Shown here: positions 6,354 to 24,478 of the stretch, one piece after another
Numbering within the stretch: position 1 is the first letter of the stretch
How the letters are laid out: each line of letters starts with the position of its first letter
Origin: a bacterium
GTDB lineage: Bacteria > Omnitrophota > Gorgyraeia > Aquiviventales > Aquiviventaceae
Length of the DNA stretch: 64,000 nt
Assembly: GCA_036396895.1 (NCBI GenBank)
Contig: DASWKB010000008.1
Coordinates: forward strand, 1,796 to 65,795
Direction of reading: 5' to 3'
Made by a program: the position numbers and the translations under genes
Notes under the pieces: model-generated
The model's database searches: none
Told to the model about the DNA's origin: nothing
Seen by the model: the letters and a program-made list of their open reading frames with translations, nothing else

Positions 6354-6455
6354 AGGCGCGGAGAGCTCAGGCGCGCGGTCGCGACCGGCTCGCATACCAG
6401 TATAGCATGGACGCGCGCGGCACCCAGCGCGTTTCCTCGTTCCAGATAATGAAAC

Positions 6456-6485: not shown

Positions 6486-6622
6486 CTGGTCCAACGGCAT
6501 GGGAACGAGGACGGGATACGTGTGCACTGCGCGCTCTCCGATCGGCCTGGGGTACGCTCACCCGTCTCCCCTTATATGCGCTCCGGAACTTCGCGTCGCA
6601 TGGTTTCAGCGCCGAGCAACCC

Positions 6623-6697
6623 TAGCCCCAACCGGATTTGAACCGGTGTCTTCAGGCTGAGAACCTGACGTCCTAGGCCGGGCTAGACGATGGGGCC
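6623..6697 (-). tRNA. tRNA-Glu (anticodon CTC); no encoded CCA
   Basis: Reverse complement: GGCCCCATCGTCTAGCCCGGCCTAGGACGTCAGGTTCTCAGCCTGAAGACACCGGTTCAAATCCGGTTGGGGCTA. Acceptor GGCCCCA pairs with TGGGGCT. Anticodon stem TCAGG/CCTGA with loop TTCTCAG. T-arm ACCGG-TTCAAAT-CCGGT. Confidence 0.85.
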
Positions 6698-6786
6698 CAA
6701 TCCGGTGCCTTGCGCGCTGCTGACCCGCCCGTGCTGACTGGCGCATCCGTCGCCGGCTCGCCCCGTCCGTGCCATTGCGCAGACAT

Positions 6787-6815
6787 TTTGTAGCATATGC
6801 GTCTTGTAAGGTCAA
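6787..6815 (-). promoter_or_regulatory. Candidate sigma70-type promoter upstream of tRNA-Glu
   Basis: Minus strand reads TTGACC - 17 nt - TACAAA, about 90 nt upstream of the tRNA 5-prime end. Confidence 0.3.
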
Positions 6816-6836
6816 GCGCTTTCGGGGGTTATCGTG

Positions 6837-7150
6837 ACGACCAACAACAAGCAACCAGAGACCAGCAACCAGAGACGGGGGGAGAGGGGCGAGAGGCGGG
6901 GGGCGGGGGACATAATCGTGTACCGTCGTACTACGGCGTTCACTGGTCTGAAGCTGGAAGCAAGACGCTGGAAACTGGAATGATCAGGGGGACCTCCCCG
7001 CTTGTTCCATCCTCTAGCTTCCAGCTTCGAGCTTCAGACTTGTTTGGCAGGATGTCCCTTGTTGCTTGTCGCTTGTTGCTTGTCGCTTGTTGCTTGTCGC
7101 TTGTCGCTTGTTGCTGCGTGGACGGTGGACTGTGGACTATGGACTGCGGA
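6837..7150. repeat. Composite intergenic mosaic element, copy 2. CAACCAG-word and CTTGTYG-word outer arms enclose a G-tract and a GCTGGAA-word hairpin, followed by a GTGGAC array.
   Basis: 6837-6876 (acgaccaacaacaagcaaccagagaccagcaaccagagac) is complementary in word content to the 7-nt array at 7054-7115 (cttgttg cttgtcg ...). G-tract at 6877-6909. Hairpin arms at 6945-6982 and 7007-7040. It lies immediately 3-prime of pilT. Confidence 0.85.
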
Positions 7151-7156
7151 GTCCGG

Positions 7157-10054: not shown

Positions 10055-10161
10055 TCCGTGAGCTCCTTCCGCTATTCCAGTCTCCATCAACGCGTGCCTT
10101 GCTTAAGGAGCGTAGCGCGCCTTCCCGTTCGCGTCAAGCCCGCAGCAATGAAGGACCAGGA

Positions 10162-10290
10162 CGGGGCATGGGGCGTGCCAAGTGCGGAGTGTGGAATCTG
10201 TGCAAAATGCGGAATTGGGAATTCGGAATTTGGAATGTCAAACCGCAGGTGATTCCGCATTCCGCATTCCACATTCCGCATTTGGCACGG
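10162..10290. repeat. GGAATTS / ATTCCGC heptamer-word hairpin module
   Basis: ...gcaaaatgcggaattgggaattcggaatttggaatg ... gattccgcattccgcattccacattccgcatttggcac. Related to 18885-18968 and 20252-20335. Confidence 0.8.
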
Positions 10291-10316
10291 AGACTGATCA
10301 TAAGGTGGACTCCTCA

Positions 10317-11294
10317 TCAAATCCGATCAAGAAGCGGCGCCGGACAGTACGCCGCCATGTCGGGCGGCGGAAGCGCGGTGACCGCCACCGGGGCGCCGGT
10401 TGAGGGGTGCCGGAACGTCAGACGGAACGCGTGCAGCTGCTGCCGCCCGATCCCGCGGCCCTGCCAGTCGGACGCGGAGCGCCGCCCATACGTCGTATCG
10501 CCCGCCACGGGATGCCCCACGTGCGCCAGATGCACGCGGATCTGATGCGTCCGCCCGGTCCCGAGGCGCAGGTGAAGCAGCGTGCACGGCAGCGTGTGAA
10601 TTGCCAGTCTCGCGAGCACGCGGAAATGCGTGACCGCGTGGCGGCCGCCGAGCATCCGGACCGACATGGTCTTCCGGTGCGTGGCGTGGCGGGCGATCCC
10701 CGCTTCGATCGTCCCGGCGTCGCGGGCCAGGTGCCCTTCCGCCAGCGCGAGATATTCCCGGCTGAGCGTGCGGGCCTTGAGCTGCTTGGCCAGCGCCAGA
10801 CGGGCCCGGGCGGTCTTGGCGACCAGCAGCAGCCCCGAGGTGTCTTTGTCGAGCCGGTGGACGATGCCGGCGCGCGGCAGCGGCTCCGGAGCGCTCTCGC
10901 GCGCCTGCTGCGCCTTGACGTAATAGCCGAGAATGGCGTTGACCAGCGTGCCGTCCCAGTGGCCGGGAGCGGGGTGCGTGACCATGCCGGCGGGCTTGTT
11001 CACGACCAGCACCGCCCCGTCCTCATGGACCACCTCCAGCGGCAGGTCCTGCGGGACCGACGGCATGCGTTCGGGCCGCGGAGGCAGCGCCGTAAACTCC
11101 GCGCGGATCCGTTCCCCGCCCCGCAGTTTCAGGTGGGCTTTGGCGGGACGCCCATCCACGGTCACCTGCTGGGCCCTGATGGCGCGCTGGACGACGGTCC
11201 TCGAGAGCACCTCCGGCAGATGCCGTCCGAGGTACTGATCGAGCCGGAGCCCCGCTTCCGCCCGGCCCGTCAGGAGCTCATAAACCCGCGCCAT
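10317..11294 (-). CDS. rluD: RluD-family 23S rRNA pseudouridine synthase
   Basis: 325 aa with an S4-like N-terminus (LRLDQYLGRHLPEVLSR) and the catalytic HRLDKDTSGLLLVAKT motif. Confidence 0.9.
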   Translation of the reverse strand: MARVYELLTGRAEAGLRLDQYLGRHLPEVLSRTVVQRAIRAQQVTVDGRPAKAHLKLRGGERIRAEFTALPPRPERMPSVPQDLPLEVVHEDGAVLVVNKPAGMVTHPAPGHWDGTLVNAILGYYVKAQQARESAPEPLPRAGIVHRLDKDTSGLLLVAKTARARLALAKQLKARTLSREYLALAEGHLARDAGTIEAGIARHATHRKTMSVRMLGGRHAVTHFRVLARLAIHTLPCTLLHLRLGTGRTHQIRVHLAHVGHPVAGDTTYGRRSASDWQGRGIGRQQLHAFRLTFRHPSTGAPVAVTALPPPDMAAYCPAPLLDRI

Positions 11295-12061
11295 CAGCCG
11301 CTGCGCGCGCGGCCGGACGGCGACGCCGTCCGGAGCACGAGGCCCGCCGCGATCAGCGCCGCGCTGATGCCCTGCTGGAGCGTGAGGCCGGCGAGCCAGA
11401 TACCCTGGTCGCCTCGGAGGAATTCCATGCCGAAGCGCAAGAGCCCGTACGCGATCAGATACGCGCTCCCCACCCGCCCCCGGCGGACCGGTTGCCCGTC
11501 ACGCTGGAGACGGCGCAACAGGACGTAGCAGCCCAGGAGCCCGGCCGCCTCGATGAGCTGCGTCGGCAGCACGGGAGCCGGATGCCCAGGAAACGTGACG
11601 CCGAACCACGCCTCCGTCGGACGCCCGTAGCAGCAGCCGTTCAGGAAGCAGCCGAGGCGGCCGATCGCATGCCCCAGCGCGACGAACGGGGCCAGCTGAT
11701 CGAACGCGGCGATCCAGGATCGCCCGCGCCGCATGAGCCAACCCCCGGCGGCCAACATGCCGCCCAGGAGACCGCCGTACCAGACAAGCCCGCCTTCCCA
11801 GATGGCGAAGATCCGCCACGGAGCGTCTCGAAACACCTCCCAATAGAGCGCCGCAAAGAACAGCCGGCCTCCCGCGATGCCGCCCAGTAGCGCGATTGAC
11901 ACCAGATCCAGCAGCGCCTCCGCAGGCACCTCGACGGACTCCCGCGGCCACGCGCGCGCGGTCCGCGCCGCCAGCCACGTCGACACGACGAAGGCCAGGA
12001 TCAGCATCACCCCGTACGTGTGGATCGTCACCGGCCCCATTCTCACCAGCACGGGAAACAT
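11294..12061 (-). CDS. lgt: Prolipoprotein diacylglyceryl transferase
   Basis: 255 aa. MFPVLVRMGPVTIHTYGVMLILAF..., GRLGCFLNGCCYGRPT and multiple TM helices. Confidence 0.9.
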   Translation of the reverse strand: MFPVLVRMGPVTIHTYGVMLILAFVVSTWLAARTARAWPRESVEVPAEALLDLVSIALLGGIAGGRLFFAALYWEVFRDAPWRIFAIWEGGLVWYGGLLGGMLAAGGWLMRRGRSWIAAFDQLAPFVALGHAIGRLGCFLNGCCYGRPTEAWFGVTFPGHPAPVLPTQLIEAAGLLGCYVLLRRLQRDGQPVRRGRVGSAYLIAYGLLRFGMEFLRGDQGIWLAGLTLQQGISAALIAAGLVLRTASPSGRARSG

Positions 12062-12074
12062 CGCTCGCTCCTCA

Positions 12075-12600
12075 TGTCAAATGCGGAATGCGGAATTCGG
12101 AATTGGCCTTGTCCGGCCACGAAACGTGACGCTGGTGCATTGATGCATCATGGCAGCGCCTTGATCGTTGTCGGTCGCCATTGCCGTCTCGTCCATGTGT
12201 TCCGTCTGTCCGTCATCATTGGGGCATGGGCCACGGGGCACGGGGCGTGGGCCGTGTCGTGCGATCGTTGAACTGGTAGAAGGTGGAAGATGGAAGGTGG
12301 AAATGTTCCCTTGTACTTTCTACCTTCCATCTTCTACCTTCTATCTTCTATATGATGTGACGGTCATCCCCACGCCGTGCCCCGGAGCGAACGAAGTGAG
12401 CGGAGTCCTGAGCGAAGTCGAAGGACCCGCCCCGTTCCCCATGCCCCCCGTGCTGACGGAACAAACGGGCAGAACGGGCATGAACTTGTCACTTGTCACC
12501 TGTCACTTGTCACGCGTTTCTCTGGTCGCTGGTCTCTGGTCGCTGGTCGCTGGTCTCTGGTTGCTGGTTGCTGGTCGCCGGTCGCTGGCCGCTTGTCTGC
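12075..12600. repeat. Largest mosaic element in the window. Three-tier nested inverted repeat plus a conserved GAGCGAA core. Its last module overlaps the lspA 3-prime end.
   Basis: Tier 1: 12275-12303 pairs with 12317-12350 (GGTRGAA / CTTCYAT heptamers; 26 of 29 complementary). Tier 2: 12221-12254 pairs with 12369-12384 plus 12427-12448 (GGGGCAC words). Tier 3 is weaker: 12183-12214 with 12455-12485. A cttgtca array lies at 12488-12512 and a CTGGTYG array at 12515-12590. Confidence 0.85.
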
Positions 12601-13068
12601 GCGAAAGGAATGCCACAGCAGCAGCGCGACCCCGATCGTGATGGCCGAGTCTGCGATGTTGAACACGGGCCAAACGCGCAGGTCGATGAAATCGACGACG
12701 TAGCCGAAGCGGACCCGGTCGATCAAGTTGCCCGCGGCGCCTCCCAGGAGCAATCCCGACGCGGCCAGGACGGCCATCGGCTGCCGGCGCCGGCTGAGCA
12801 GCATCCAAGCGATCCAGAGCATCACCGTCGCCGAGAGCGCGATGAAGATGCCCAGCTGGCCGCGCAGCAGGCCGAACGCGGCCCCGGTGTTCTGGACGTA
12901 GGTGAGATGCAGGACGGAGGGAATCACCGGGAGGCTGTCCCCCGGCGCGAACCGGCCGAGGATCAACAGCTTGACGAGTTGGTCCGCGACGAGCACCGCA
13001 GCCCCGACCGCCCACGGCCACGCCAGCCGCGGAACCGCCGGCGCGGGAGGGTCCTCCTGAGCGGTCAT
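12496..13068 (-). CDS. lspA: Lipoprotein signal peptidase II with a repeat-encoded low-complexity C-terminal tail
   Basis: 190 aa with LTYVQNTGAAFG, GGAAGNLIDR and FNIADSAITIG. The tail ADKRPATGDQQPATRDQRPATRDQRPEKRVTSDR is encoded by the heptamer array at 12496-12600. Confidence 0.9.
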   Translation of the reverse strand: MTAQEDPPAPAVPRLAWPWAVGAAVLVADQLVKLLILGRFAPGDSLPVIPSVLHLTYVQNTGAAFGLLRGQLGIFIALSATVMLWIAWMLLSRRRQPMAVLAASGLLLGGAAGNLIDRVRFGYVVDFIDLRVWPVFNIADSAITIGVALLLWHSFRADKRPATGDQQPATRDQRPATRDQRPEKRVTSDR

Positions 13069-13096
13069 CTCGGGCGCTCCGCGGGAGCCCGGACGG

Positions 13097-13480
13097 TCAG
13101 GGCTTGCCCTTCTGCTCCTTGACCCGCTGGCACTCGATGCACATGAGCGCGTACGGCACGGCCTTCAGCCGGCTCATGGTGATCGCCTTGCCGCACGCCT
13201 GGCACACCCCGTAGCTCCCGTCATCGATCCGCTTGAGCGCGTCATCGATCTGGTAGAGCAGTTCGCGTTCGTTGGAGGCGACGTTCATCGACAGTTCCCG
13301 CTCGTGCGTGTCGGTCGCCATGTCCGCCATGTGCACCGTGTAGCCCGACAGGTCGCCTGAGGCGTCCCGCGGGGTCTTCAGGGCGTCCTGGGCCAGCGAG
13401 CGCAGCTCGCCGACAATCCGCTCGCGCTCCGTAATGAGCAGTTGTTTGAAGTGCTTGAGCTGGTCCTTCGTAATCGCCAT
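13097..13480 (-). CDS. DksA/TraR-family C4 zinc-finger protein
   Basis: Start at MAITKDQLKHFKQLL (ATG at 13480). Zinc finger CQACGKAITMSRLKAVPYALMCIECQ. The 300-aa track ORF is an artefactual extension into ileS. Confidence 0.8.
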   Translation of the reverse strand: MAITKDQLKHFKQLLITERERIVGELRSLAQDALKTPRDASGDLSGYTVHMADMATDTHERELSMNVASNERELLYQIDDALKRIDDGSYGVCQACGKAITMSRLKAVPYALMCIECQRVKEQKGKP

Positions 13481-13494
13481 GAGTCCGTCGTTGG

Positions 13495-16332
13495 TTACTC
13501 GGTTGCGTGAGTGCCTGGCAGCGTCGGCATGCCCGCCACGGCCTGGACGCACCGCGCGCACAGCTGCGGATGGTCCGCATGCGCTCCGACGCTGTCCAGG
13601 TGCTTCCAGCACCGCCCGCACTTGGCGCCCGGCGCGCGGCTGATCCGGATGCCGGCCAATCCCGGCACGCCGGTCTCGTCCGCGTCCTGCGGCCCCGCGG
13701 CGGCCACGGCGACCTCCGACACCACGAACGCCTCCGCGAGCGTGTCGCGATGCGCGTGCAGGTCCCGCAGGAGCTCCGGGTCGCGCGCGCTGAGCGTCAC
13801 GCGGGCCTCCAGCGGGCTGCCGATCACCCGCTTGAGCCGTTCGGCTTCGAGCGCCTTCATCACGGCGCCGCGCACCGCGAAGAACGTGTCCCAGCGCGCG
13901 GCCGCCGCCGCATCCAGCGCCCCGCCCTCCGGAGCCGTCCAGGCGCCGAGCCCGGCGAAGGGTTCGCTCACCCACTGCGCCTCGCGCATGAACTGCCACA
14001 CCTCATCCGTCGTCACGACGAGGACGGGCGCCAGGGTCGCCACAAGCGCGCGCAGTATAGCATAGAGCGCGGTTTGCGCACAGCGCCGTTTCGCCGAGTC
14101 CGCAGGCTCCGTGTACAGGCGGTCCTTCAGGGCGTCCAGGTAGCACGACGAGAGGTCCTGTACGCAGAACCGGTAGACGGCCCGAATCGCGTCGTGAAAC
14201 TGGTACGCCTCGTAGGCGCGCGTCACGTCCTCGCACAGGGCAGCGGTCCGGTGGAGAGCCCACCGGTCCAGCTCGCCGAGCTGCCGCGCCGGCACCGCCG
14301 CGCGGGGATGAAAATCGAACAGGTTCGCCAGCAAATACCGGAACGTGTTGCGGATCTTCCGGTACGATTCGGCTGTCTGCTCGAGAATCTCGTCCGAAAT
14401 CCGCACGTCTTCGCGGTAATCCGACGAGGCGACCCACAGCCGCAGGATGTCGGCGCCGTAGCGTGCCGTCACCTCCTGCGGCGCGATGACATTGCCCAGG
14501 CTCTTGGACATCTTGCGCCCGTCTCCATCCACGACAAACCCGTGCGTGAGCACCTGACGGTACGGCGGCGCGCCCTTGAGCGCCGCGGCCGTGATCAGCG
14601 AGACTTGGAACCACCCCCGGTGCTGATCCGACCCTTCAAGATACAGATCCGCCGGCCAGCGCAGGCCCGGCCACGTCTCAGGCCGCAGCACCGCGGCATG
14701 GCTGACCCCGGAATCGAACCACACGTCCAGGATATCCGGATCCTTCCTGAGCTCCCTTCCGCCGCAGTCCGGGCACGCCAGCCCCGGCGCGAGCTGCGCG
14801 GGCGTCTCGGTGAACCAGGCCTCGAGGCCGCGCTCGGCGAGCGCGGCCTCGATCCGCTCGATGGCCGCGACGTCGAGCAGCGGGCGTTCGCAGGCGGCGC
14901 AGTGCAGCACCGGAATCGGGCTGCCCCAGTACCGCTGCCGGGACAGGCACCAGTCGGGACGGGACTGCAGCATGCCCGCGATGCGTCCGAGCCCCGCGTC
15001 CGGCACCCAGCGCACGCCGCGGACGGCCTCGAGCAGCATCGCGCGGAACGGGTCGGTCACGCGCAGAAACCACTGCGGCGTCGCGCGGAAAATGACCGGC
15101 TGTTTGCACCGCCAGCAGTGGGGATAGGAGTGCTCCAGGGGCTCCTCCCGTAGCAGGAGGCCCCGGGCCGTCAGATCCCGGATGATGTCGGGCGTCGCGT
15201 CCCATACCGTCCGGCCCGCCCACGCCGGCACCTCCTGCGTGAACCGCCCGCGCTCGTCCACCGGCGAGAGCACCTCGAGCCCCGCCGAGCGGCCGATGAG
15301 GAAGTCTTCATGCCCGTGTCCGGGCGCGATGTGGACCACGCCCGTGCCCTCGGTCAGCGAGACCCCGGCATCGAACACGGCGCGCGACCCGCGCGCCGCC
15401 AGCGGCGCCCGGCAGACCATGCCGTCCAGGGCGCGCCCGTCGAACTCGGCGACCCGCGCGGCGCCGGGCGCCCCGAGCTTGGCCAGGAACGCCTCGGCGA
15501 CGTCGGAGGCGACCACCAGCTGGCTCGTCCAGCGCGCGTCCGTGAACACCGCATACCGGGCGTCCGGATGGAAGCACAGCGCCACGTTCGCCGGCAGCGT
15601 CCAGGGCGTCGTCGTCCAGGCCACCACCGCCGTCGGGCGGCCGAACGCGTCCCGCGCGTCTGCCGGCAGTCCCGCCGGCGCGCGCTCGACCGGGAACGCC
15701 ACGTAGATCGACGCGTCGCGGCGGTCCTCGTACTCGACCTCCGCCTCCGCCAGCGCGGTTTCGCACGTCGCGCACCAGTACACCGGCTTCATGTCGCGCA
15801 CGATGTATCCCCTGCGCACGAGCTCCTTGAACGACCGGAGCACCGTCATCCCGTACTCGGCCGACATCGTGAGGTACGGGCGCGCCCAGTCCCCGACCAC
15901 GCCAAGCCGCTTGAACTGCTCCCGCTGGATGCCGACGTATCGCTCCGCGTACGCGCGCGCGAGGCCGCGGAACTCATGCTGGGCGATGTCGCGCTTGGTG
16001 AGCTTCCGCTCCTTGAAGAGCTGGTGCTCGATCGGCATCCCATGGCAGTCCCAGCCCGGCACATACGGCGCGTCGTAGCCCCGGAGCACCTTGTAGCGCA
16101 CGATGACGTCCTTGAGGATCTTATTCAGGGCGTGCCCGATATGGATATCCCCGTTGGCGTACGGCGGGCCGTCATGCAGCACGAACGTCTCGGCGCCGGC
16201 GCGCGCGCGGCGCATCAGTCCGTACAGGTCCTCGGAGTCCCATCGGGCCAGGAACGCCGGCTCGCGCTCCGGAAGATTGGCCTTCATCGGAAACGTCGTC
16301 TTCGGAAGATTCAACGTGGTTTTATAGTCCAT
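13495..16332 (-). CDS. ileS: Isoleucyl-tRNA synthetase
   Basis: 945 aa with the HIGH motif (PYANGDIHIGH), KMSKS, and a C-terminal zinc-binding CxxC pair. Confidence 0.95.
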   Translation of the reverse strand: MDYKTTLNLPKTTFPMKANLPEREPAFLARWDSEDLYGLMRRARAGAETFVLHDGPPYANGDIHIGHALNKILKDVIVRYKVLRGYDAPYVPGWDCHGMPIEHQLFKERKLTKRDIAQHEFRGLARAYAERYVGIQREQFKRLGVVGDWARPYLTMSAEYGMTVLRSFKELVRRGYIVRDMKPVYWCATCETALAEAEVEYEDRRDASIYVAFPVERAPAGLPADARDAFGRPTAVVAWTTTPWTLPANVALCFHPDARYAVFTDARWTSQLVVASDVAEAFLAKLGAPGAARVAEFDGRALDGMVCRAPLAARGSRAVFDAGVSLTEGTGVVHIAPGHGHEDFLIGRSAGLEVLSPVDERGRFTQEVPAWAGRTVWDATPDIIRDLTARGLLLREEPLEHSYPHCWRCKQPVIFRATPQWFLRVTDPFRAMLLEAVRGVRWVPDAGLGRIAGMLQSRPDWCLSRQRYWGSPIPVLHCAACERPLLDVAAIERIEAALAERGLEAWFTETPAQLAPGLACPDCGGRELRKDPDILDVWFDSGVSHAAVLRPETWPGLRWPADLYLEGSDQHRGWFQVSLITAAALKGAPPYRQVLTHGFVVDGDGRKMSKSLGNVIAPQEVTARYGADILRLWVASSDYREDVRISDEILEQTAESYRKIRNTFRYLLANLFDFHPRAAVPARQLGELDRWALHRTAALCEDVTRAYEAYQFHDAIRAVYRFCVQDLSSCYLDALKDRLYTEPADSAKRRCAQTALYAILRALVATLAPVLVVTTDEVWQFMREAQWVSEPFAGLGAWTAPEGGALDAAAAARWDTFFAVRGAVMKALEAERLKRVIGSPLEARVTLSARDPELLRDLHAHRDTLAEAFVVSEVAVAAAGPQDADETGVPGLAGIRISRAPGAKCGRCWKHLDSVGAHADHPQLCARCVQAVAGMPTLPGTHATE

Positions 16333-16450
16333 GACAATTATGCGGCTGAGACCGGCGAGCGATCATGCCGGCGCGGGAGAGCAGACGTGCATGTGTGCAT
16401 TCGTGCAGAGCTTCGATTGTTGATGCCACTGCATCCCCGAGAAGCCGAAA

Positions 16451-16545
16451 GTGGAAGCTGGATGTCGTCGTGGTGTATCGGCGTTGCCATGTTACTTGTT
16501 GCTTCTTGCTGGTTGCTTGTTGCTGGTCGCTAGCCCTTTGTCGCT
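16451..16545. repeat. Short mosaic element (GCTGGAW word plus a CTTGTTG/CTGGTTG array) just 3-prime of yggT
   Basis: gtggaagctggatg at 16451-16464. gttacttgttgcttcttgctggttgcttgttgctggtcgctag at 16491-16533. Confidence 0.7.
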
Positions 16546-16846
16546 AGCCAAGGCGATGCGACAGGTCGTAGAGGGACGCCACGAGGAACAGCCGGAGAAA
16601 CCAGATGCCCAGGAGCGCCGCCAGCGGCGAAAGATCCAGCATGCCCACGACCGTAAACGGCAGCGTGCGGCGGATCCAGGCGAACACCGGCTCGGTCACC
16701 GCCCGCAGGAATTGCACGACCGGGTTGTACGGATCCGGACTGACCCATGAAATCATCACCGAGACGAAGATGACGAAACTGTAGATCCACAGGACCCGGT
16801 CGATGATGACCGCAGTCGCCTGCAAGAGATTGCCGAGCACGAACAT
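16544..16846 (-). CDS. yggT: YggT-family membrane protein
   Basis: 100 aa reading ...ISWVSPDPYNPVVQFLRAVTEPVFAWIRR.., the typical YggT motif. Confidence 0.8.
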   Translation of the reverse strand: MFVLGNLLQATAVIIDRVLWIYSFVIFVSVMISWVSPDPYNPVVQFLRAVTEPVFAWIRRTLPFTVVGMLDLSPLAALLGIWFLRLFLVASLYDLSHRLG

Positions 16847-16879
16847 CGCGATCCCTCCGTTCGCCTGCTCCGCGCCACG

Positions 16880-17722
16880 CTACCGCGCGGCGCGCGACAA
16901 GGCCCGCGAGCGCGCCGCCGCCGCCCGCACGGCACCGACGATGGCGGCATGCGCGCGGCGGGCCGCCAGCACCTTGAGCGCCGCCTCGGTCGTGCCCCGT
17001 TTGGACGCGACGGTGGCGATCCACTCGTCAGGGTCCCGCCCGCCCCGTTCAAGCAGCGCCAGCGCGCCGCGCAGCGTCGCGGTAACCGCGCGGGCCGCGA
17101 GCGGCGCCGGCAGCCCGAGAGATACCGCCGCCTCCCTCCACGCGCGCACGAGGTACAACACGTACGCGGGCCCGGACCCGCTGACGGCCGTGACCGCGTC
17201 GAAGTGCGACTCCGGCAGCTCGACGACCTCGCCCACCGTGGCGAAGATCGCCGCCACCGCGCGCCGGTGGCGCGCGGTGCACCGACGGCCGAACGCGAGC
17301 GCGGCGAATCCGGCTCCCGCCGTCGCCGGCAAGTTCGGCATGACCCGCGCCACGGGCATGCCGGGCAGCCGGGATTCGAGCCACCCGAGCCGGATGCCCG
17401 CCGCGATCGAGATGACGAGCGTCCGGCGATCCATCGCGCCCGCGAGATCCCTCAGCGCGCCGGCAAGCTGCTGGGGCTTGACCGCCAGCACCAGCACCCG
17501 GCACTGGCGCGCCACCGCGCGGTTGTCCCGCGTGACGGATGCGCCCGAGCGCCTGAGCGCGCGGCGCGCCGCGGCCGAGGGATCCGCGACCCAGAGCCGG
17601 CCCGCCGGCATGCCCGCCGCCCGCAGGCCCACCGCCAGGGCGCGGCCCATGGTTCCGCCTCCGATCACGCCGACGCTCGTCGTCCTGAGCTGCGCCGGCA
17701 CGGACGCGCGAGGCGCCGTCAT
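16880..17722 (-). CDS. proC: Pyrroline-5-carboxylate reductase
   Basis: Start at MTAPRASVPAQLRTTSVGVIGGGTMGRAL (ATG at 17722; ATGA overlap with the yggS stop). Also contains LAVKPQQ and SGSGPAYV. The C-terminus reads KRGTTEAAL. Confidence 0.85.
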   Translation of the reverse strand: MTAPRASVPAQLRTTSVGVIGGGTMGRALAVGLRAAGMPAGRLWVADPSAAARRALRRSGASVTRDNRAVARQCRVLVLAVKPQQLAGALRDLAGAMDRRTLVISIAAGIRLGWLESRLPGMPVARVMPNLPATAGAGFAALAFGRRCTARHRRAVAAIFATVGEVVELPESHFDAVTAVSGSGPAYVLYLVRAWREAAVSLGLPAPLAARAVTATLRGALALLERGGRDPDEWIATVASKRGTTEAALKVLAARRAHAAIVGAVRAAAARSRALSRAAR

Positions 17723-18432
17723 GCTCCGAGCGCCGTCCGCGCGCCGAATATCGCCGTCCCGATCCTCACGATGTCCGCTCCCTCTTCCACGGCCACGTCG
17801 AAATCCTCGGACATCCCCATCGACAGCGCAAGCGACGTCGCCGGCCATCCGAGCCCGGCGGCGATCTCGTCGCGAAGCTCCCGCATCCGGCGAAAGACAG
17901 GACGCGCCGACTCGGGATCGTCCGACCAGGGCGCGATGGCCATCAACCCGGCCAGGCGAAGGTGCGCGGAACCCGCCGCCCGGCTGGCGAGCGGCTCCGC
18001 CAACTGAGGCGCGCAGCCGTGCTTCGCGGGCTCGCCCGCCACGTTCACTTGGATGAAGACGTCAAGCGTGCCCGCCTGAGGCGCGGCAGCGCGGTGCGCC
18101 TCGAGCGCGTCGATAAGCTCCCCGGAGTCCGCCGAGTGCACCGCATCGAACAGGACCGCCGCGAGCTTGGCTTTGTTGCGCTGCAGATGCCCGATCAGAT
18201 GCCAGCGGCCGCGCCGGCCTTCGCCCCGGCCGAGGAGCTCGAGCTTGCTCCTGGCCTCTTGGACCCGGCTTTCGCCGAACGCGTCCAGGCCCAGCGCCGC
18301 GGCCGCCCGGATCCGCTCAAGCGGCACGCCCTTCGTGACGGCCAGCAGGGTGACGGACGCCGGATCGCGGCCCGCCCGGCGGCAGGCTTCGCCGACGCGC
18401 CGGCGAACTTCGGCCACGTTGGACGCCAGCAT
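17719..18432 (-). CDS. yggS: YggS-family pyridoxal-phosphate homeostasis protein
   Basis: Start at MLASNVAEVRRRVGEACRRAGRDPASVTLLAVTKGVP. Also contains HLIGHLQRNK and MGMSEDF. Confidence 0.85.
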   Translation of the reverse strand: MLASNVAEVRRRVGEACRRAGRDPASVTLLAVTKGVPLERIRAAAALGLDAFGESRVQEARSKLELLGRGEGRRGRWHLIGHLQRNKAKLAAVLFDAVHSADSGELIDALEAHRAAAPQAGTLDVFIQVNVAGEPAKHGCAPQLAEPLASRAAGSAHLRLAGLMAIAPWSDDPESARPVFRRMRELRDEIAAGLGWPATSLALSMGMSEDFDVAVEEGADIVRIGTAIFGARTALGA

Positions 18433-18439
18433 GCGGAGT

Positions 18440-18445
18440 ATTTTA
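18440..18445 (-). promoter_or_regulatory. TAAAAT -10-like hexamer 7 nt upstream of the yggS ATG; possible leaderless transcript
   Basis: Minus strand reads gcTAAAATactccgcATG. Confidence 0.25.
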
Positions 18446-18447
18446 GC

Positions 18448-19008
18448 ATACGGATTACACGGATTCAGATTGGATTGCACGGATTCAAAGAGGATGACAC
18501 AGATTGACGATTCAATCCGTATAATCCGTTGTGAATCCGTATAATCCGGCAGTGAAAAACCCGGGACTGTCCCGGGTTTTAATTGGGGACTGTCCCGGGT
18601 TTCCCCGGGTTTTCCAGCTCAAACGCGGGGACAGCCCCGAGGACCACATTCGCGTACCGTGCACCGGAACGCAATTCGCAGTGTCGCGTAACGCGCAACG
18701 CGTAACGTGGGTCTCAAGCGTGATACATGCGGGCCAGTTCCCGAGGTGCCATCCCGCCGGAAGCGGGGTGGCTCCGAGGGGGCTGGGCCGCTCGAAATGA
18801 GGTCAAAGCTGGTCGGAAGCTGGAAGCTGAACGTCGAAGGGGCATGGGGCGCGGGGCGAGGGGCGGGGGAACTGGGGAGCTATGGCAAAATTCGGAATTC
18901 AGAATTGGGAATTCGGAATCGGACGCTCGTCATTCCGCATTTCGAACTCCGCATTCCGAATTTGGCACAGTTGCTGGTCCCTTGTTGCTGGTAGCTTGTC
19001 GCTTGTTG
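18448..19008. repeat. Repeat-only spacer between ftsA and yggS. Order: ACGGATT hairpin, CCCGGGAC palindromes, ACGCGTW words, GCTGGAA words, G-tract, GGAATTC hairpin, CTTGTTG array.
   Basis: Modules at 18448-18550, 18555-18615, 18672-18710, 18808-18838, 18839-18878, 18885-18968 and 18968-19008. No credible ORF is present. Confidence 0.85.
18555..18615. terminator. Tandem A-tract / CCCGGGAC-N-GTCCCGGG / T-tract palindromes; candidate bidirectional intrinsic terminators downstream of ftsA
   Basis: gaaaaacccgggactgtcccgggtttt at 18555-18580, with a degenerate second copy at 18585-18615. The same element occurs at 62038-62103. Confidence 0.55.
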
Positions 19009-20148
19009 CTAGAAATACTCAACGAGGACGGCTTTGGCGCGCTCGAGCACGCGGCCGAGCGGGCCGCCCGGCGAAGCCAAGGCCGCTCCGGCGCGCGGGC
19101 GCGAGGCGAGCTCGAGGAGTCCGATGGCCGGGCAGAGCGCGAGTTGCCGGGAGAGGTCGGCGGAGCGGTGCGTGCGCGGGCTCCGGCAGAGCGCCGTCGG
19201 GATTCCGAGCGTGCGCTCCACCCATTCGACGAAGCCGTCCATCAGCGCCGCGCGTCCGGCCACCAGCACGAGGTCGGGCTTGGGTTCGCCTCCGAGCACG
19301 GTCCTGATCCCCTCTTCCAAGCGAGCCCAGGCCGCGTCCAAATGGGCCCGGACGCGCTCTTCACGGCTGGCGGTGCCTTCCCGGATTGAGGCGGTGGCCT
19401 GCTCGAGCGTCACGTCAAGCTCCCGGGCGAGATCCCGCGCCAGGCTCACGCCGCCCCACGGCTCGACCCGGCAGGCGGTCAGCACCCCTGCCTCGAACAC
19501 CGCGAGATCGATCGAGAGCCCTCCGAGATCGATGACGAGCACTCGCCCACCCGCGGACCGTTCGTCCGCCGCCCCGGCCAACGCGGCCGCCGGAGCGTAC
19601 CGAACGTCCAATGCTTCCAGCCCGACCGATTCCACCGCTTCCAGGAGCGTCCGGCGCACGGCCACCGGCATCGTCACCAGAAGGAAGTCCCCCTGGAGGC
19701 GCGTCGCGCAAAGCCCTCGGGGATCGCCGACACGCGCGAACCCGTTGCCGGCGTAGCCCAGACATTCCATATGCAGCACGTCCCGGTCAATCGCCAGCGA
19801 CTGGTTGAGGGCCGCAGTCCGCAACCGCGCGACGTCCCGCGCCTTGACCGCCACGGGCTCGTCAGCGATCGGCACCGCCGCCCGCACCCGTTCGCTCTGG
19901 AGCGCCGGGTGGGACAGGCAGACGAGCGCGCGGGTCAGTTCCGCGGTGACGCCGGTCGCGTCGATCGCCGCTTCGATCGCGCGCGCCACGACAAGCGGAT
20001 CCGGCACGCCCGAGTCGTTCGGCGCCGGATACGGCTCGACGCCGCTGCCGAGCAGTTCCCAGCCCGGCGTGCGCTCGTGGCTGAGGCCGATGGCGCAGGC
20101 GACCTTGGTCCATCCGATGTCCAACGCCACCACCGGCTTCGCCGTCAT
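19009..20148 (-). CDS. ftsA: Cell division protein FtsA (actin-like ATPase)
   Basis: 379 aa with VVALDIGWTKVACAIG, VLVIDLGGLSIDLAVF and an amphipathic C-terminus (RVLERAKAVLVEYF). Confidence 0.85.
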   Translation of the reverse strand: MTAKPVVALDIGWTKVACAIGLSHERTPGWELLGSGVEPYPAPNDSGVPDPLVVARAIEAAIDATGVTAELTRALVCLSHPALQSERVRAAVPIADEPVAVKARDVARLRTAALNQSLAIDRDVLHMECLGYAGNGFARVGDPRGLCATRLQGDFLLVTMPVAVRRTLLEAVESVGLEALDVRYAPAAALAGAADERSAGGRVLVIDLGGLSIDLAVFEAGVLTACRVEPWGGVSLARDLARELDVTLEQATASIREGTASREERVRAHLDAAWARLEEGIRTVLGGEPKPDLVLVAGRAALMDGFVEWVERTLGIPTALCRSPRTHRSADLSRQLALCPAIGLLELASRPRAGAALASPGGPLGRVLERAKAVLVEYF

Positions 20149-20180
20149 CCCGCATTCTCGTGCGTGCTCATCCCACTTCC

Positions 20181-20418
20181 GTCAACATTGGGCATGGGAC
20201 ACGTTATGGTACGGAGCACGGGGCGAGGGGCGGGGTAACTGGGGAGCGATTGCAAAATTCGGAATTCGGAATTGGGAATTCGGAATCGGACGCTCGTCAT
20301 TCCGCATTCCGAACTCCGCATTCCGAATTTGGCACAGTTGCTGGTCTCTGGTTGCTTGTCGCTTGTCGCTTGTTGCTTGTCGCTTGTTGCTCGTTGCTTG
20401 TCGCTCGTTGCTTGTTGC
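20181..20418. repeat. Mosaic element between ftsQ and ftsA (G-tract, GGAATTC hairpin, long CTTGTYG array)
   Basis: 20219-20346 matches 18852-18979 with 5 mismatches over 128 nt, in direct orientation. Confidence 0.9.
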
Positions 20419-20450
20419 GATCGTCTTGAAAATGTTTCGAAGCCCATGTG

Positions 20451-21245
20451 CTATGTGCGGGGCGCCACAACCGGATCGTCGAATCGCAGATCGATGTACC
20501 GGACCGCCAGGTCCCGACGCCCGATGGCCGCCATCGTGTCCCGCAGGCGGCGCAGGTTCACCGCCAGCTCCGCTTCGGACCCGCAGCGGATTTCGGTGCT
20601 GTCATCGATCAGAAACCGCAGCTGCCGGGGGTTGGAGACGTCCAGCTCGCTGAGCCGGCGGTCCGCCAGCGCCGGCGCACGGCGCAGCTGCTCCAGCACC
20701 CGCAGCGCCAGCTGCAGCCGCTCATCCGCGTTGCGGCGTCCGACGTGCAGCGCCGCGCCCAGGCGTCCGACGCCGTGCACCCGCGGCAATCCCTCGTCGG
20801 CCTCCGTCCCCTCGGGCAGGATGAAGCCTTCCGCATCGACCGGAAGCCAGCCGTTCACCCGCACGAACGCCACCGGTTCCCGCTCGATGACGTCGATGCG
20901 AATCCGGTCGGGCAGGTCCCGAATCACCCGCACGTGCTTGAGCGTGGGCCGCTGGCGCTCAAGCGCCCGGGCGAGCTGACCGATGTCCACCTGCCAGATA
21001 TTGCTGCCCATGAGCGAAGGATCAATCGTCAGCCCCGAGCCCGGCGGCATCGTCACGCGCGTCACCCGGAACGCCTCCGCGCGGTTCGTATGGTCCCACA
21101 ACAGCCAGACGGCGGCCGCCGTCAGGGCGCAGCCGGCCGCCAGCGACGGGTGCTGCCAGAGCCACCGCACGCCGCCCCAGAGCCATCCGCCGAACCGCGG
21201 GATCACGCCCACGACGGACCGCCGCCGTATCCGTCTGCTGGCCAT
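20451..21245 (-). CDS. ftsQ: Cell division protein FtsQ (POTRA domain)
   Basis: Start at MASRRIRRRSVVGV (ATG at 21245, overlapping the ddl stop as TGATG). One TM helix, then FRVTRVTM... and VRVIRDLPDRIRIDVIEREPVAFV. Confidence 0.75.
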   Translation of the reverse strand: MASRRIRRRSVVGVIPRFGGWLWGGVRWLWQHPSLAAGCALTAAAVWLLWDHTNRAEAFRVTRVTMPPGSGLTIDPSLMGSNIWQVDIGQLARALERQRPTLKHVRVIRDLPDRIRIDVIEREPVAFVRVNGWLPVDAEGFILPEGTEADEGLPRVHGVGRLGAALHVGRRNADERLQLALRVLEQLRRAPALADRRLSELDVSNPRQLRFLIDDSTEIRCGSEAELAVNLRRLRDTMAAIGRRDLAVRYIDLRFDDPVVAPRT

Positions 21246-22219
21246 CAGCGCCCGCCTTCGCCTGCCGCCGCGGCCGCCGCCGGCAGCCAGGCCAGCTGCA
21301 CCAGCGTCTCGCAGAGGGCGCCGTAAGACAGCCCCACGCAGGCCGCCGCTTTCGGCAGCAGGCTCGTCGGAGTGAATCCGGGAATCGTGTTCACCTCGAG
21401 GACCACGGGCGTGCCGTCCTCGCGCAGGATGAGATCGGTCCTCGAGAAGTGCCGCGCCCCGATCGCGCGGTGCGCCAGCCAACCGGCGTCCTGCACCCGC
21501 CGGGCGGACGCCTCATCCAGCGCCGCCGGCACCTCGTACCGGGTCTCGCCCGCGGTGTACTTCGCGTCGAAATCAAAGAAGGCATGACGCGGGACCACGC
21601 CCACGACCGGCAACACGCGCTCGCCCACCACGCCGACGGTCAGCTCCCGGCCGCGGACATACTCCTCGATGAGCACCGGCGCGCCGAACGCGGCCGCCGC
21701 CTCCACGGCCCGCGCCCACTCCTCGGGACGCTCCACCAGCGACACGCCGAGGCTCGAGCCTTGATTCGACGGCTTGACGACCGCCGGCAGTTCCCCTTCG
21801 CGCGGCCACCCGGCCGTTTCGGCCGCGCCCGGCGCCAGCACGCGGCAGCGCGGCACCGCCAACCCCGCCGCGGTAAACGCGGCGCGCGAGGCGATCTTGT
21901 CCATCCCCAGCCGGCTGGCCGCCACCTCGGAGCCCGTGTAGGCGATGTGCAACTCCTCGCAGACCTCCTGAATGGTGCCGTCCTCGCCGAAGGGCCCGTG
22001 CAGCGCAATGAACGTGACGTCGGGGCGGCGCTGCGTCATGTGGCGCCGGACGGCGTCCGCCGCGTCGGCGGCCGTGCCGTGCCGCGGCAGTTCAAGCGTT
22101 TCAACGTCCCAGCCGAGCTCCGCGAGCGCCAGCGCGACCCCCCGTCCGCTCTTCAGGGAGATGCCGTGCTCGCCCGACGGCCCGCCCATGAGGACGGCGA
22201 CGGAGCCGTGCGCGCTCAT
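21245..22219 (-). CDS. ddl: D-alanine--D-alanine ligase
   Basis: 324 aa with VAVLMGGPSGEHGISLKSG, FIALHGPFGEDGTIQ and EVNTIPGFT. Confidence 0.9.
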   Translation of the reverse strand: MSAHGSVAVLMGGPSGEHGISLKSGRGVALALAELGWDVETLELPRHGTAADAADAVRRHMTQRRPDVTFIALHGPFGEDGTIQEVCEELHIAYTGSEVAASRLGMDKIASRAAFTAAGLAVPRCRVLAPGAAETAGWPREGELPAVVKPSNQGSSLGVSLVERPEEWARAVEAAAAFGAPVLIEEYVRGRELTVGVVGERVLPVVGVVPRHAFFDFDAKYTAGETRYEVPAALDEASARRVQDAGWLAHRAIGARHFSRTDLILREDGTPVVLEVNTIPGFTPTSLLPKAAACVGLSYGALCETLVQLAWLPAAAAAAGEGGR

Positions 22220-23145
22220 CGCAGGGCTTCCGCCTCGGCCGCCGGCTGCGGCAGCCGCCAGGACTCGCCGAGGATCCGGATCTCCGGGAGCAGCTCGACG
22301 CCGAAGCTCATCCGCACGGACCGCTGCGCGTGCTCCATGAGCGCGAGCACGTCCGCGCAGGTGGCCGCGCCCACGTTGACGATGAAGTTCGCGTGCCGCT
22401 CGGAAATCCGCGCATCGCCGATCCGGGCGCCTTTGAGCCCCGCGGCGTCCAGCAGCCGGCCGGCCGGCGAGCCCGCCTCCGGCGGATTGCGGAACGCGCA
22501 GCCGGCCGACGGCAGCCGCAGCTCCTGCGTGAGGTTCCGCCGCTTGAGCACGGCATCGATGCGCGCGGCGGCCTCATCCGCGGACACCCGGGGGAACTCC
22601 AGCAGCACGTCGGTGATGATGCCCGTTGGGAGCGGCGTATACCGGTATCGGAACTCGAGGCGCTCCCGCGGCAGGCGGTGCAGCGTGCCGTCGAAGCCGA
22701 CGAGCCGCACCTCGCGGACGAACCGGCCGATCCCCTGGGCGTTCATCGCCACCGCCCCGCCCACCTGACCGGGCAGCCCCGCCAGCGTCTCCACCCCGCC
22801 CCAGCCGCGCACGGCCGCCAGCGTCACCACCCGCTGGGTGAGCAGCGCCGCGCCGCAGAGCACCTGCGCCTCGGGCGCCCCCGGCCGCGCGAGCTCCTCC
22901 ACCCGGCGGAACCCCAGCCCCAGCTTTACGACGAGCCCGCGGACGCCGCGGTCGGCGGCGAGCGTGTTGGTCCCGCCCCCCAGCACCGACACCGGCAGCT
23001 GCAGGCGCGCCGCGCCGCGCAGCGCATCCATCAGCTCCTGCGGATGCTGCGGCTCCGCGAACCATTCCGCCGGTCCGCCGATGCGGAAGCTGGTGTGGTT
23101 GGCGAGCGGTTCGTTACGACGGACGCACGTCGGCGGCCAGGTCAT
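22216..23145 (-). CDS. murB: UDP-N-acetylenolpyruvoylglucosamine reductase
   Basis: LANHTSFRIGGPAEWF, GGGTN and SERHANFIVN are present. I prefer the start at the Met of MTWPPTCVRRNEPL; the track start at 23217 would overlap murC by about 100 nt. Confidence 0.85.
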   Translation of the reverse strand: MTWPPTCVRRNEPLANHTSFRIGGPAEWFAEPQHPQELMDALRGAARLQLPVSVLGGGTNTLAADRGVRGLVVKLGLGFRRVEELARPGAPEAQVLCGAALLTQRVVTLAAVRGWGGVETLAGLPGQVGGAVAMNAQGIGRFVREVRLVGFDGTLHRLPRERLEFRYRYTPLPTGIITDVLLEFPRVSADEAAARIDAVLKRRNLTQELRLPSAGCAFRNPPEAGSPAGRLLDAAGLKGARIGDARISERHANFIVNVGAATCADVLALMEHAQRSVRMSFGVELLPEIRILGESWRLPQPAAEAEALR

Positions 23146-24478
23146 GGCAGAGCTCTCCGATATCGCCGGCTCCAAGCACGTAGATCGTGTCCCCCGATGA
23201 CATGACCCGCCGGACATAGGTCGTCAGATCGGGCTTGGGCACGTAGTGCACCCAGGGATGCCCCTGGGCGCGGATCAGCGCGGCGAGCCGCTCGCCGCTC
23301 ACCCCGGGAATCGGGGATTCGAACGCCGGGTAGATGTCCGTCACGATGACGCCGTCCGCCCGGTCGAAACAGCGCGTGAATTCCTGCTCCAGACTCTGCG
23401 TGCGGGAATAGCGGTGCGGCTGGAAGACGACCAGCCGGTGCCTCCCGTCGAGCGCGCCGGAGGCCAGCGTGGCGCGGATTTCCGACGGGTGATGCGCGTA
23501 ATCCTCCACGAGCACGATGTCGCCGGGCAGGCGCGTCGCCTGGAAGCGCCGCTGGGTGCCCTGGTAGCGTCCGAGGGCGTCCCGGACGGTCACCATCGGG
23601 ATCTCAAGCGTGAGGGCCATGCTCATGACGCCCAGCGCGTTCGCGATGTTGTGCGCGCCCGGCACCTGAAGCTGGAAGCCTCCCAGATCCCGGCCCCGGT
23701 AGCGCGCGCGGAACCGGCTGCCGTGCCCGACGAAGCGGATGCGCTCCGCGGTCACGTCCGACGCGCTCGAGAGGCCGTAGGTCAGCCGATGGAGGCCGGC
23801 GAACGCCGTGCGGATCACCGGATCGTCCCAAGAGACGATCAGGGCGCCCTGGGGATCGAGCTGTCCCGCGAAGGTCTGGAACGCCACGATGAGCCGGTCG
23901 AACGTCTGGTAGTAATTCAGATGCTCGCGGTCGATGTTCGTGATGATCGCGACGTGCGGCGACAGTTCCAGGAACGAGCCGTCCGACTCGTCCGTTTCGG
24001 CCACCAGATACCGCCCCTGTCCCGCGTGCGCGTTCGTGCCCAGCGAGCGCATGACGCCCCCGACGACGACCGTCGGATCCCAGCCCGCTTCCAGGCAGAT
24101 CTGGGCGGCCATGCCGGATGTCGTGGTCTTGCCGTGGGCGCCCGCGACGGCGATCAGCCGCCGGTCGCGCGAGAGCTCCGCGAGCAGCCGCCCGCGGCTC
24201 ACCGTCCGCACGCCCCGGGCGATGGCTTCGCACAGCTCCGGCGACTGGGTCGGCACCGCCGAGGTGTGGACGAGCAGGTCCACCGGCCCATCGAGATGAC
24301 GCGGGTGGTGCCCGCGCGCAACACTGACCCCCTTGCCCGCCAGCGCCTCGACCTGGGGGCCGCGCCCCGTGTCGCAGCCGGAGACTTCCAAGCCCCTCGC
24401 GCGGCAGATCTCGGCCAGGCCGCTCATCCCGATGCCGCCGATCCCCATGAAGTGCACGCGCGCGCCCGCCTCAAGCAT
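23114..24478 (-). CDS. murC: UDP-N-acetylmuramate--L-alanine ligase
   Basis: 454 aa with HFMGIGGIGMSGLAE, GAHGKTTT and DYAHHPSEI. Confidence 0.9.
   Translation of the reverse strand: MLEAGARVHFMGIGGIGMSGLAEICRARGLEVSGCDTGRGPQVEALAGKGVSVARGHHPRHLDGPVDLLVHTSAVPTQSPELCEAIARGVRTVSRGRLLAELSRDRRLIAVAGAHGKTTTSGMAAQICLEAGWDPTVVVGGVMRSLGTNAHAGQGRYLVAETDESDGSFLELSPHVAIITNIDREHLNYYQTFDRLIVAFQTFAGQLDPQGALIVSWDDPVIRTAFAGLHRLTYGLSSASDVTAERIRFVGHGSRFRARYRGRDLGGFQLQVPGAHNIANALGVMSMALTLEIPMVTVRDALGRYQGTQRRFQATRLPGDIVLVEDYAHHPSEIRATLASGALDGRHRLVVFQPHRYSRTQSLEQEFTRCFDRADGVIVTDIYPAFESPIPGVSGERLAALIRAQGHPWVHYVPKPDLTTYVRRVMSSGDTIYVLGAGDIGELCHDLAADVRPS

Follow-up and report, generated by a model that had tools for sequence, protein, structure and literature searches.

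Near-identical direct repeats on either side of ftsA in a metagenome-assembled genome are probably copies of a dispersed modular heptamer repeat

Dispersed heptamer repeats of the types (GGGAATC)n and (GGGANTN)n occur about 185 times per genome in Xanthomonas, about 90% of them being intergenic, mostly between co-oriented open reading frames (ORFs) and near the upstream ORF, and in 70–75 cases per genome two arrays converge as an inverted pair that could form a stem-loop (Rehm et al., 2015, PMC4692102). These repeats form G-quadruplexes in vitro and are transcribed, no function has been found for them, and a related heptamer repeat, GGGGA(C/T)T, is present in Nostoc (PMC4692102). TAACTGA and other heptamer arrays lengthen the spacers of Beggiatoaceae, cyanobacteria and Bacteroidetes as compared to close relatives (MacGregor, 2015, PMC4679880). 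Here, a 64-kb stretch of a bacterial metagenome-assembled genome (MAG; contig DASWKB010000008.1, positions 1,796 to 65,795), in the following called the window, was analyzed with respect to two near-identical repeats, copy A and copy B, which lie on either side of the cell division gene ftsA. Their closest published analogue is the group of Xanthomonas GGGAATC and Nostoc heptamer repeats, while REP/BIME sequences (repetitive extragenic palindromes and bacterial interspersed mosaic elements) and the Rickettsia palindromic elements are looser ones. Copies A and B are probably members of a dispersed, modular intergenic repeat of seven-base simple-sequence units that is not special to ftsA.

A first-pass annotation had read the two repeats by eye as about 96% identical over 128 nt, and alignment of 18852–18979 with 20219–20346 upheld this figure, with 123 of 128 positions identical, no gaps and exactly five mismatches. 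The shared orientation, the internal make-up given for both copies (G tract, GGAATTC hairpin, start of a CTTGTTG array) and the placement on either side of ftsA were likewise correct, copy A lying at the ftsA stop codon and copy B between ftsQ and ftsA. Gapped local alignment of both spacers extended the homology to 18846–19010 and 20213–20377, i.e., 165 nt without gaps and with 154 identical positions (93%), the longest perfect blocks being 40 and 37 nt; a repeat scan of the window returned the same pair as 170 nt at 92%. The ends of the homology fall inside repeat arrays, and besides the 11 differing positions of the 165, the flanks and array lengths of the two copies differ as well. Chance origin of the match is excluded because the probability of 123 or more matches in 128 is about 6e-63 for a single pair, while the window offers about 2e9 possible pairs. 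The two copies are placed as follows:

18846..19010, plus strand: repeat copy A, 165 nt, comprising a G-rich heptamer tract, the GGAAT-heptamer hairpin and the first part of the CTKGTYG array; terminates on the ftsA stop codon (19009–19011)
20213..20377, plus strand: repeat copy B, 165 nt, with module order and orientation as in copy A; is flanked by the ftsQ stop codon and the ftsA start codon and begins 64 nt upstream of the ftsA ATG (20148)

Both copies are built as mosaics from three modules of seven-base repeats, namely a (GGGGCRN)n tract, a hairpin with (SGGAATK)n arms and a (CTKGTYG)n array, which were located by Tandem Repeats Finder (TRF), an inverted-repeat scan, a regular expression for G-quadruplex (G4) motifs and folding:

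18838..18877, plus strand: copy A G-rich heptamer array (GGGGCRN)n with G4 motif (TRF period 7, G4 expression)
18885..18966, no strand assigned: copy A hairpin of a (SGGAATK)n arm, the loop CGGACGCTCGTC and a (MATTCCS)n arm (inverted-repeat scan, fold)
18970..19010, plus strand: copy A (CTKGTYG)n array of about 5.4 units, abutting the ftsA stop codon (TRF)
20220..20244, plus strand: copy B G-rich heptamer tract with G4 motif (G4 expression)
20251..20334, no strand assigned: copy B hairpin, loop CGGACGCTCGTC as in copy A (inverted-repeat scan, fold)
20337..20418, plus strand: copy B (CTTGTYG)n array with about 11 units; 33 nt separate its end from the ftsQ stop codon (TRF 20340–20418)

The period-7 G-rich tract of copy A was detected at 18838–18869 and its G4 motif at 18839–18877, on the plus strand, which is the template strand of ftsA; the sequence GGGGCGAGGGGCGGGGTAACTGGGG is a G-quadruplex candidate as a sequence motif only. 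The hairpin of about 80 nt is predicted to fold in both copies into an imperfect stem of about 32 bp, with arms at 18885–18919/18932–18966 in copy A and 20251–20286/20299–20334 in copy B. It is closed by GCAAAAT...ATTTGGC, and the A+T-rich stem is followed by a UUUU that is partly paired. In a 170-nt context the predicted folding energy was −48.4 kcal/mol for copy A and −56.2 kcal/mol (z −5.2) for copy B. The hairpins of A and B differ by two substitutions, at 18901 and 18942 in copy A; with the metagenome contig L063 as outgroup in the alignment both are derived in A, and both weaken the stem. Period 7 extends to the hairpin arms (18889–18923, 18931–18962, 20256–20290 and 20298–20329; TRF), in which the units CGGAATT, GGGAATT, CGGAATC and AGAATTG keep G2, G3, A4 and T6 and vary at G1, and exact GGGAATC is absent from copies A and B. 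As read from the sequence, neither the GGAATKC unit nor its complement contains a stop codon in any frame.

The GGAAT-heptamer hairpin is not confined to the surroundings of ftsA: the window holds four GGAAT-heptamer sites, where none would be expected by chance, the two further ones being:

10174..10291, plus strand: third GGAAT-heptamer hairpin copy, loop subfamily TCAAACCGCAGGTG, downstream of rluD (repeat scan, alignment)
12080..12103, plus strand: (AATGCGG)n array with one arm only, belonging to the same family of heptamers (TRF)

Over the right arm the third copy is 77–79% identical to copies A and B. Loci fetched from metagenomes by means of a pattern that was based on A and B revealed closer counterparts in metagenome Ga0214471. 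Over 137 nt, contig L063 matches copy B at 89% and copy A at 88% identity and has an identical loop CGGACGCTCGTC, and contigs L016, L045 and L059 are 82–92% identical to the third window copy; the genes flanking these four loci are unrelated to those of the window. Moreover, the larger module order of CGCGTAA array, GGAAGCTGGAAG, G tract, hairpin and array is common to copy A, L063 and L016, and the leftward modules, the CGCGTAACGCGNAACG array and GGAAGCTGGAAG, bring the mosaic unit to up to about 320 nt. Within the window, other repeats of the same class are the pair 1195–1445 and 6927–7080 (88–91%) and the triplet 12318–12447, 40140–40269 and 58308–58376 (90–93%). The first-pass annotation had overlooked that A and B belong to a modular repeat with many more copies across the genome. 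A further repeat pair of the modular class was seen at 12171–12237 and 53290–53356, such pairs and triplets showing 75–93% identity overall, and among the dispersed repeats a pair of hairpins with CTGGAAG units brackets a Flp/Tad pilus gene group and a tRNA-Glu gene.

Compared with the described systems, the repeats studied here share with the Xanthomonas and Nostoc heptamers the seven-base units, a nearly identical GGAAT core, many dispersed copies and a unit number that varies from site to site. Like the Xanthomonas repeats, A and B are situated between genes, with co-oriented ORFs on both sides and a gene end close by, and contain convergent inverted pairs; furthermore, both consist of tandem seven-nucleotide units as detected by TRF and include G-rich arrays with a G-quadruplex motif. 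However, the first G is not conserved here (SGGAATK), which makes the hairpin arms poor G-quadruplex formers, and the G4 motif resides in the separate (GGGGCRN)n module. In addition, a fixed-order mosaic of 137–320 nt with unique loops is copied as a unit, and the host is a high-G+C MAG and not a xanthomonad, with the core also occurring in frame within genes of other metagenome contigs. REP/BIME sequences of enterobacteria and REPINs of Pseudomonas resemble the present repeats in combining imperfect palindromes and short motifs as mosaics in operon spacers and in having many copies per genome and subfamilies. Side effects of such elements on mRNA stability and termination are known. In contrast to these, no GT(A/G)G or other GTAG-type head was found at the hairpin, the arms are about 35 nt of tandem heptamers and not a unique palindrome of 20–40 nt, and no REP-associated tyrosine transposase (RAYT/Y1_Tnp) gene was detected among the about 40 ORFs scanned in the 64 kb.

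The Rickettsia palindromic elements are comparable in that they are found between genes as well as inserted in frame into genes that they leave intact, as is the hairpin core in contigs L064, L067 and L012/L074. The core differs in being shorter, at about 55–80 nt, in its probably unrelated sequence, in its heptamer periodicity and in its occurrence in contigs of 43–72% G+C, not in one genus; copies A and B, moreover, are intergenic. The cyanobacterial STRR and TAACTGA repeats are likewise intergenic tandem heptamers next to start and stop codons, with mixed types per spacer, one heptamer common to distant phyla and spacers longer than in close relatives (PMC4679880). Those are mostly simple direct arrays, whereas here convergent arrays give long hairpins and composite units are duplicated together with unique sequence. 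A literature search for the heptamer strings returned only primers. Taken together, the repeat belongs to the known dispersed heptamer simple-sequence and palindromic intergenic repeats; it is distinctive in that a fixed-order mosaic is copied whole, the G4 module stands apart from the hairpin module and the core is present in coding sequences of many lineages.

The repeats lie in a division and cell wall (dcw) gene block, in which the following genes were identified:

19009..20148, minus strand: ftsA-like gene, 379 aa (Pfam SHS2_FTSA and FtsA above gathering score)
20451..21482, minus strand: ftsQ, start codon uncertain (Pfam POTRA_1 and FtsQ_DivIB_C)
17719..18432, minus strand: yggS, pyridoxal phosphate-binding with Ala_racemase_N fold, the gene actually following ftsA (Pfam, synteny)

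The best solved-structure matches of ORF 19009–20148 are FtsA proteins (E 8e-17, PDB), and the encoded protein is identical to NCBI HEX9779795.1. On the minus strand, murC, murB, ddl and ftsQ precede ftsA, and yggS, proC, yggT, ileS and dksA follow it (Pfam). Five relative contigs, with FtsA proteins 49–54% identical, have the order murC-murB-ddl-ftsQ-ftsA-yggS-proC-yggT-ileS-dksA-lspA-lgt-rluD without ftsZ, and two FtsA relatives at 48–50% identity are labeled Candidatus Omnitrophica. With regard to closer relatives as judged by FtsA, a contig scan gave only a 30% identical match from Chlorobiota and a protein search nothing above 54% besides the protein itself, and an exact look-up of the FtsA of the window yielded no contig. 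Neither the tubulin/FtsZ signature GGGTG[ST]G in any of the six frames of the 64-kb window nor an FtsZ/Tubulin domain among the about 40 window ORFs scanned was detected. Since relatives with about 50% identical FtsA share the gene order without ftsZ, its absence here is a lineage trait unrelated to the repeats. The first-pass annotation had described the repeats as marking junctions at which the order ftsQ-ftsA-ftsZ is interrupted by long spacers: the long spacers are indeed present, whereas the order with ftsZ is not, yggS being the gene after ftsA. The synteny comparison it had called for, possible with distant relatives, thus spoke for a conserved position of ftsA and against an interruption, ftsZ being absent from them likewise. 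In the dcw cluster of the window (16544–24478) and of contigs L002–L006, ftsA is directly followed by yggS-proC-yggT-ileS, and the FtsA-like protein is short, with 377–379 aa.

The spacers of this block are expanded in the window. The ftsQ|ftsA junction measures 302 nt as compared to 4–13 nt or an overlap in the relatives, ftsA|yggS at least 528 nt as compared to 46–83 nt, yggT|ileS 211 nt as compared to 17–22 nt and lspA|lgt 434 nt as compared to 4–5 nt, and the murC|murB|ddl|ftsQ junctions overlap in the window and the relatives alike. The long spacers are real and specific to the lineage of the window. The expanded junctions are almost wholly filled with repeats of a common architecture: a G-rich heptamer tract, one or more hairpins with opposed tandem-heptamer arms, and T/G-rich heptamer arrays touching the gene end. 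Spacers of like architecture were found at 1051–1488, 6557–7157, 10102–10317, 12076–12496 and 16362–16544, the hairpin units varying by spacer (GGAATKC, CTGGAAG, GACGGAA, GGTGGAA and ACGGATT-like). In the window, 12 heptamer arrays have four or more units, as compared to none in the syntenic relatives L002, L003, L005 and L006. Between ftsA and yggS, the following was found outside copy A:

18433..18845, no strand assigned: remainder of the ftsA|yggS spacer, a repeat mosaic too (inverted-repeat and TRF scans)
18451..18548: hairpin of ACGGATT units
18555..18580: palindrome CCCGGGACTGTCCCGGG flanked by A5/T4, resembling a terminator on the minus strand
18685..18707: CGCGTAA array
18815..18829: GGAAGCT, two units

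These findings are best explained by a repeat element class that would fill most operon junctions of this genome and would have enlarged the two junctions around ftsA within an ancestrally compact block of ftsQ-ftsA, followed by yggS. The arrays show the periodicity and unit variation of slippage-prone heptamer repeats. Independent slippage, however, cannot give unique loops and junctions shared at 88–96% identity, and whole composite units of 137–320 nt, including non-repetitive loops and junctions, recur at high identity at unrelated loci; the composite units must therefore spread by copying. We propose that this may take place by transposition-like insertion or by recombination or gene conversion. 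Copies A and B are closest to each other, with 96% identity as compared to at most 89% to any other copy seen, so that the ftsA pair would reflect a recent copy to the neighboring junction or gene conversion between neighbors. The stem-weakening changes derived in copy A are as expected for drift. The elements are best regarded as largely selfish or neutral structured repeats, and an ftsA-specific function is not supported. Incidental consequences for ftsA may follow: its translation would no longer be coupled to that of ftsQ as it is in relatives, a G4-prone template and a long hairpin would have to be transcribed, structured DNA or RNA would lie between the genes, and the direct repeats would be a potential recombination substrate.

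Several points weigh against a dispersed repeat without local function. Among the about 40 window ORFs scanned, neither a transposase nor a RAYT was present, and neither a target-site duplication nor sharp ends of the element could be delimited. The much greater similarity of A and B to each other than to other copies, their abutting of gene ends and the one orientation shared by most window modules could also result from selection for a local function. In addition, the reading is drawn from no more than 64 kb of this genome and from metagenome loci whose sampling was biased. No relative with FtsA above 54% identity was found, and hence no comparison of filled with empty ftsA junctions could be made.

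Alternatively, the repeats could be cis-regulatory cassettes, whose long hairpins, alone or together with the G-quadruplex/C-rich tract, would serve as attenuators, sites of RNA processing or 3'-end stabilizers and would uncouple ftsA expression from ftsQ upstream and yggS downstream, two copies being kept as both ends of the gene need one signal. Hairpins predicted to be stable in the mRNA-sense strand (copy B at the folding energy and z value given above), the A-tract and short U-tract beside the stem, and the position of both copies between genes of the same direction, where the array reaches a stop codon, are in line with such a role. Effects of this type are known for REP/BIME and Correia elements. 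Moreover, the Xanthomonas heptamer repeats are transcribed (PMC4692102). Nevertheless, we consider regulation by the repeats unlikely. A consensus promoter/terminator scan called neither a canonical promoter nor an intrinsic terminator at either copy, and the ftsA|yggS spacer already contains a canonical-looking terminator on the minus strand at 18555–18580, CCCGGGACAGUCCCGGG followed by U5. Searches of Rfam 15 at gathering score returned only tRNAs in the window and, within 18400–20500, only sub-threshold matches at chance level. The hairpin core also occurs within coding sequences, two derived changes weaken the stem of copy A, and the relatives manage with junctions of 4–83 nt. Furthermore, in the window the mosaic, read from G tract to array, runs against the direction of the genes, whereas in L016 and L063 it follows that direction and in L045 both orientations occur; these opposite orientations argue against a strand-specific transcript function. 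For the same reason, a fixed orientation rule (stop codon, C-rich array, hairpin, C tract), acting as a Rho-loading site or terminator-promoter cassette, was rejected. With respect to the site at 18555–18580, which may also be written CCCGGGACAGTCCCGGG-U5, it belongs to a small family of G+C-rich palindromes between runs of A and T, AAAA(A)CCCGGGACWGTCCCGGGTTTT(T). Members of this family are also present at 62039–62064 and 62078–62103; they look like bidirectional intrinsic terminators and were not listed by the consensus terminator scan.

It had also been suggested that the direct repeats serve RecA-mediated deletion or amplification of ftsA, which is possible in principle and a fair general expectation. 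A recombination module would generate, by RecA-dependent exchange between A and B, variants with ftsA deleted or tandemly amplified, and the direct orientation, the 165 nt at 93% identity and the perfect blocks of 40 and 37 nt suit such an exchange. In Escherichia coli, the minimal processing segment for RecA-dependent exchange is about 25 nt, which both blocks exceed. As an explanation of the pair, however, this is very unlikely, as ftsA keeps its position in all relatives and is probably essential, so that deletions, which are probably lethal, would be lost. A mismatch every 15–40 nt or so also reduces recombination via mismatch repair, and the many other pairs of the same class in the window show that this pair is not special. 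An origin of one copy as an assembly artefact, i.e., a collapsed or duplicated repeat or a chimeric join, comes to mind for a short-read MAG contig, given that repeats promote misassembly; it is extremely improbable in view of the 11 differences in 165 positions, the different flanks and array lengths, the ftsQ-ftsA-yggS order, which is exactly that of the five independent relative contigs, and the similar elements in independent assemblies. An integron gene cassette with attC was rejected, as the hairpin ends lack RYYYAAC...GTTRRRY cores and ftsA is syntenic in all relatives.

The hairpin core by itself, GGGAATTCGGAAT-N5-35-ATTCCGCATT, was found in 83 metagenome contigs from many samples with G+C contents of 43–72%. 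A single viral contig and no plasmid matched the pattern, and a phage or plasmid origin was rejected on these grounds. Contig L064 is syntenic with window positions 10614–16866 at 67–77% nucleotide identity, and its rluD gene reads in frame through two GGAAT-heptamer hairpins (5280–5360 and 5615–5687), which add inserts of 18–21 residues, NAECGMRNAELSGKEHSALRTPNSAL and NAECGMRNAELKPGIPNSEFPIPN, both absent from the RluD proteins of the window, L002 and L005. [quoted passage not shown] In L067 (364–1263; identical in L071 and L080) an in-frame hairpin splits a Response_reg receiver domain at profile position 68, and in the diverged orthologues L012 4207–6357 and L074 281–2596 a hairpin is found at the same place in a PMT_2/TPR membrane protein. 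In this, the hairpin core behaves like an inserted element and is comparable to the Rickettsia palindromic elements. In a 48% G+C contig, L019, the core was also seen in frame in an ORF of 1284 aa encoding a Prim-Pol protein (5071–8922), and GGAAT-heptamer hairpins fill tRNA-tRNA spacers in two unrelated contigs (L018 9757–9869 and L043 3061–3150).

Furthermore, a conserved structure of about 280 nt, of which the GGAAT-heptamer hairpin is the apical arm, was observed at seven loci: L014 132–472 (minus strand), L027 20–355, L041 3154–3490 (minus), L031 1505–1844 (minus), L048 3991–4332, L030 84–425 (minus) and L025. Its closing stem comprises about 40 bp, compensatory changes are seen in 14 of 79 predicted pairs and no Rfam match was obtained for it, so that it may be an undescribed structured RNA. 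In the hairpin itself, compensatory covariation was rejected, as the two differences between A and B do not fall in one pair and across 75 hairpins the variable position is preferentially mismatched. It is the sixth position of paired heptamers, where T tends to face C, or G to face A, so that a bulge recurs every 7 nt. Across these 75 hairpins (window and L007–L090) a position-6 mismatch is present in 87 of 119 unit pairs, or in 32 of 44 without the innermost pairs where about 50% would be expected. The retrieval pattern, which was built from A and B, accounts for part of this figure, and a periodic mismatch rule is therefore only suggestive.

Tentatively, and as a possibility we hold to be less probable than its alternatives taken together, the (GGAATKC)n/(GMATTCC)n hairpin might represent an undescribed, widespread mobile palindromic element of uncultivated bacteria. 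Free of stop codons in six frames and with a conserved periodic mismatch, it would insert into spacers, tRNA-tRNA gaps, the apex of the 280-nt structure and, in frame, proteins, and in the lineage of the window it would nucleate larger mosaics of heptamers, by which compact operons, the dcw cluster among them, would be broken up.

For ftsA itself the repeats are of little consequence, the bracket being a by-product of a genome-wide repeat invasion. A compact, translationally coupled block of cell division and housekeeping genes in the relatives is here pried apart by mosaics prone to non-B DNA, which offers a natural system for studying the spread of heptamer simple-sequence repeats, their selfish or regulatory nature and their tolerance by essential operons. 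The feature is ordinary for this genome, and it is the repeat class that merits a census. The repeats are also a warning for MAG assembly and gene calling, as exemplified by the array-encoded tail of LspA. The lspA ORF runs for about 33 codons into a (CTGGTCG)n array (12496–12600, minus strand), giving a C-terminal tail ...ADKRPATGDQQPATRDQRPATRDQRPEKRVTSDR that is absent from L064 LspA, which ends ...LLLWQSLRRR; the array overran or replaced the natural lspA stop codon.

Regarding the yggS end of the ftsA|yggS spacer, a conserved TTGACC-N17-TAGAGT promoter lies 7 nt before the yggS start in relatives (L002 11138–11185, L004 11138–11220 and L005 11135–11180), and yggS of the relatives looks leaderless. 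In the window, the probable yggS start is the ATG at 18432, preceded within 18433–18450 by TGcTAAAAT and 7 nt, with the ACGGATT-unit hairpin in place of the −35 region. Elsewhere in the window, ARAGORN reported an odd tRNA-like sequence at 49121–49215. The 3' part of tRNA-Pro (45262–45339, minus strand) has a second copy at a distance of 149 nt, with 88% identity between the two (45104–45146 and 45253–45295); this duplication resembles a remnant attachment site, and a gene for a XerC/D-type tyrosine recombinase is located at 40283–41353.

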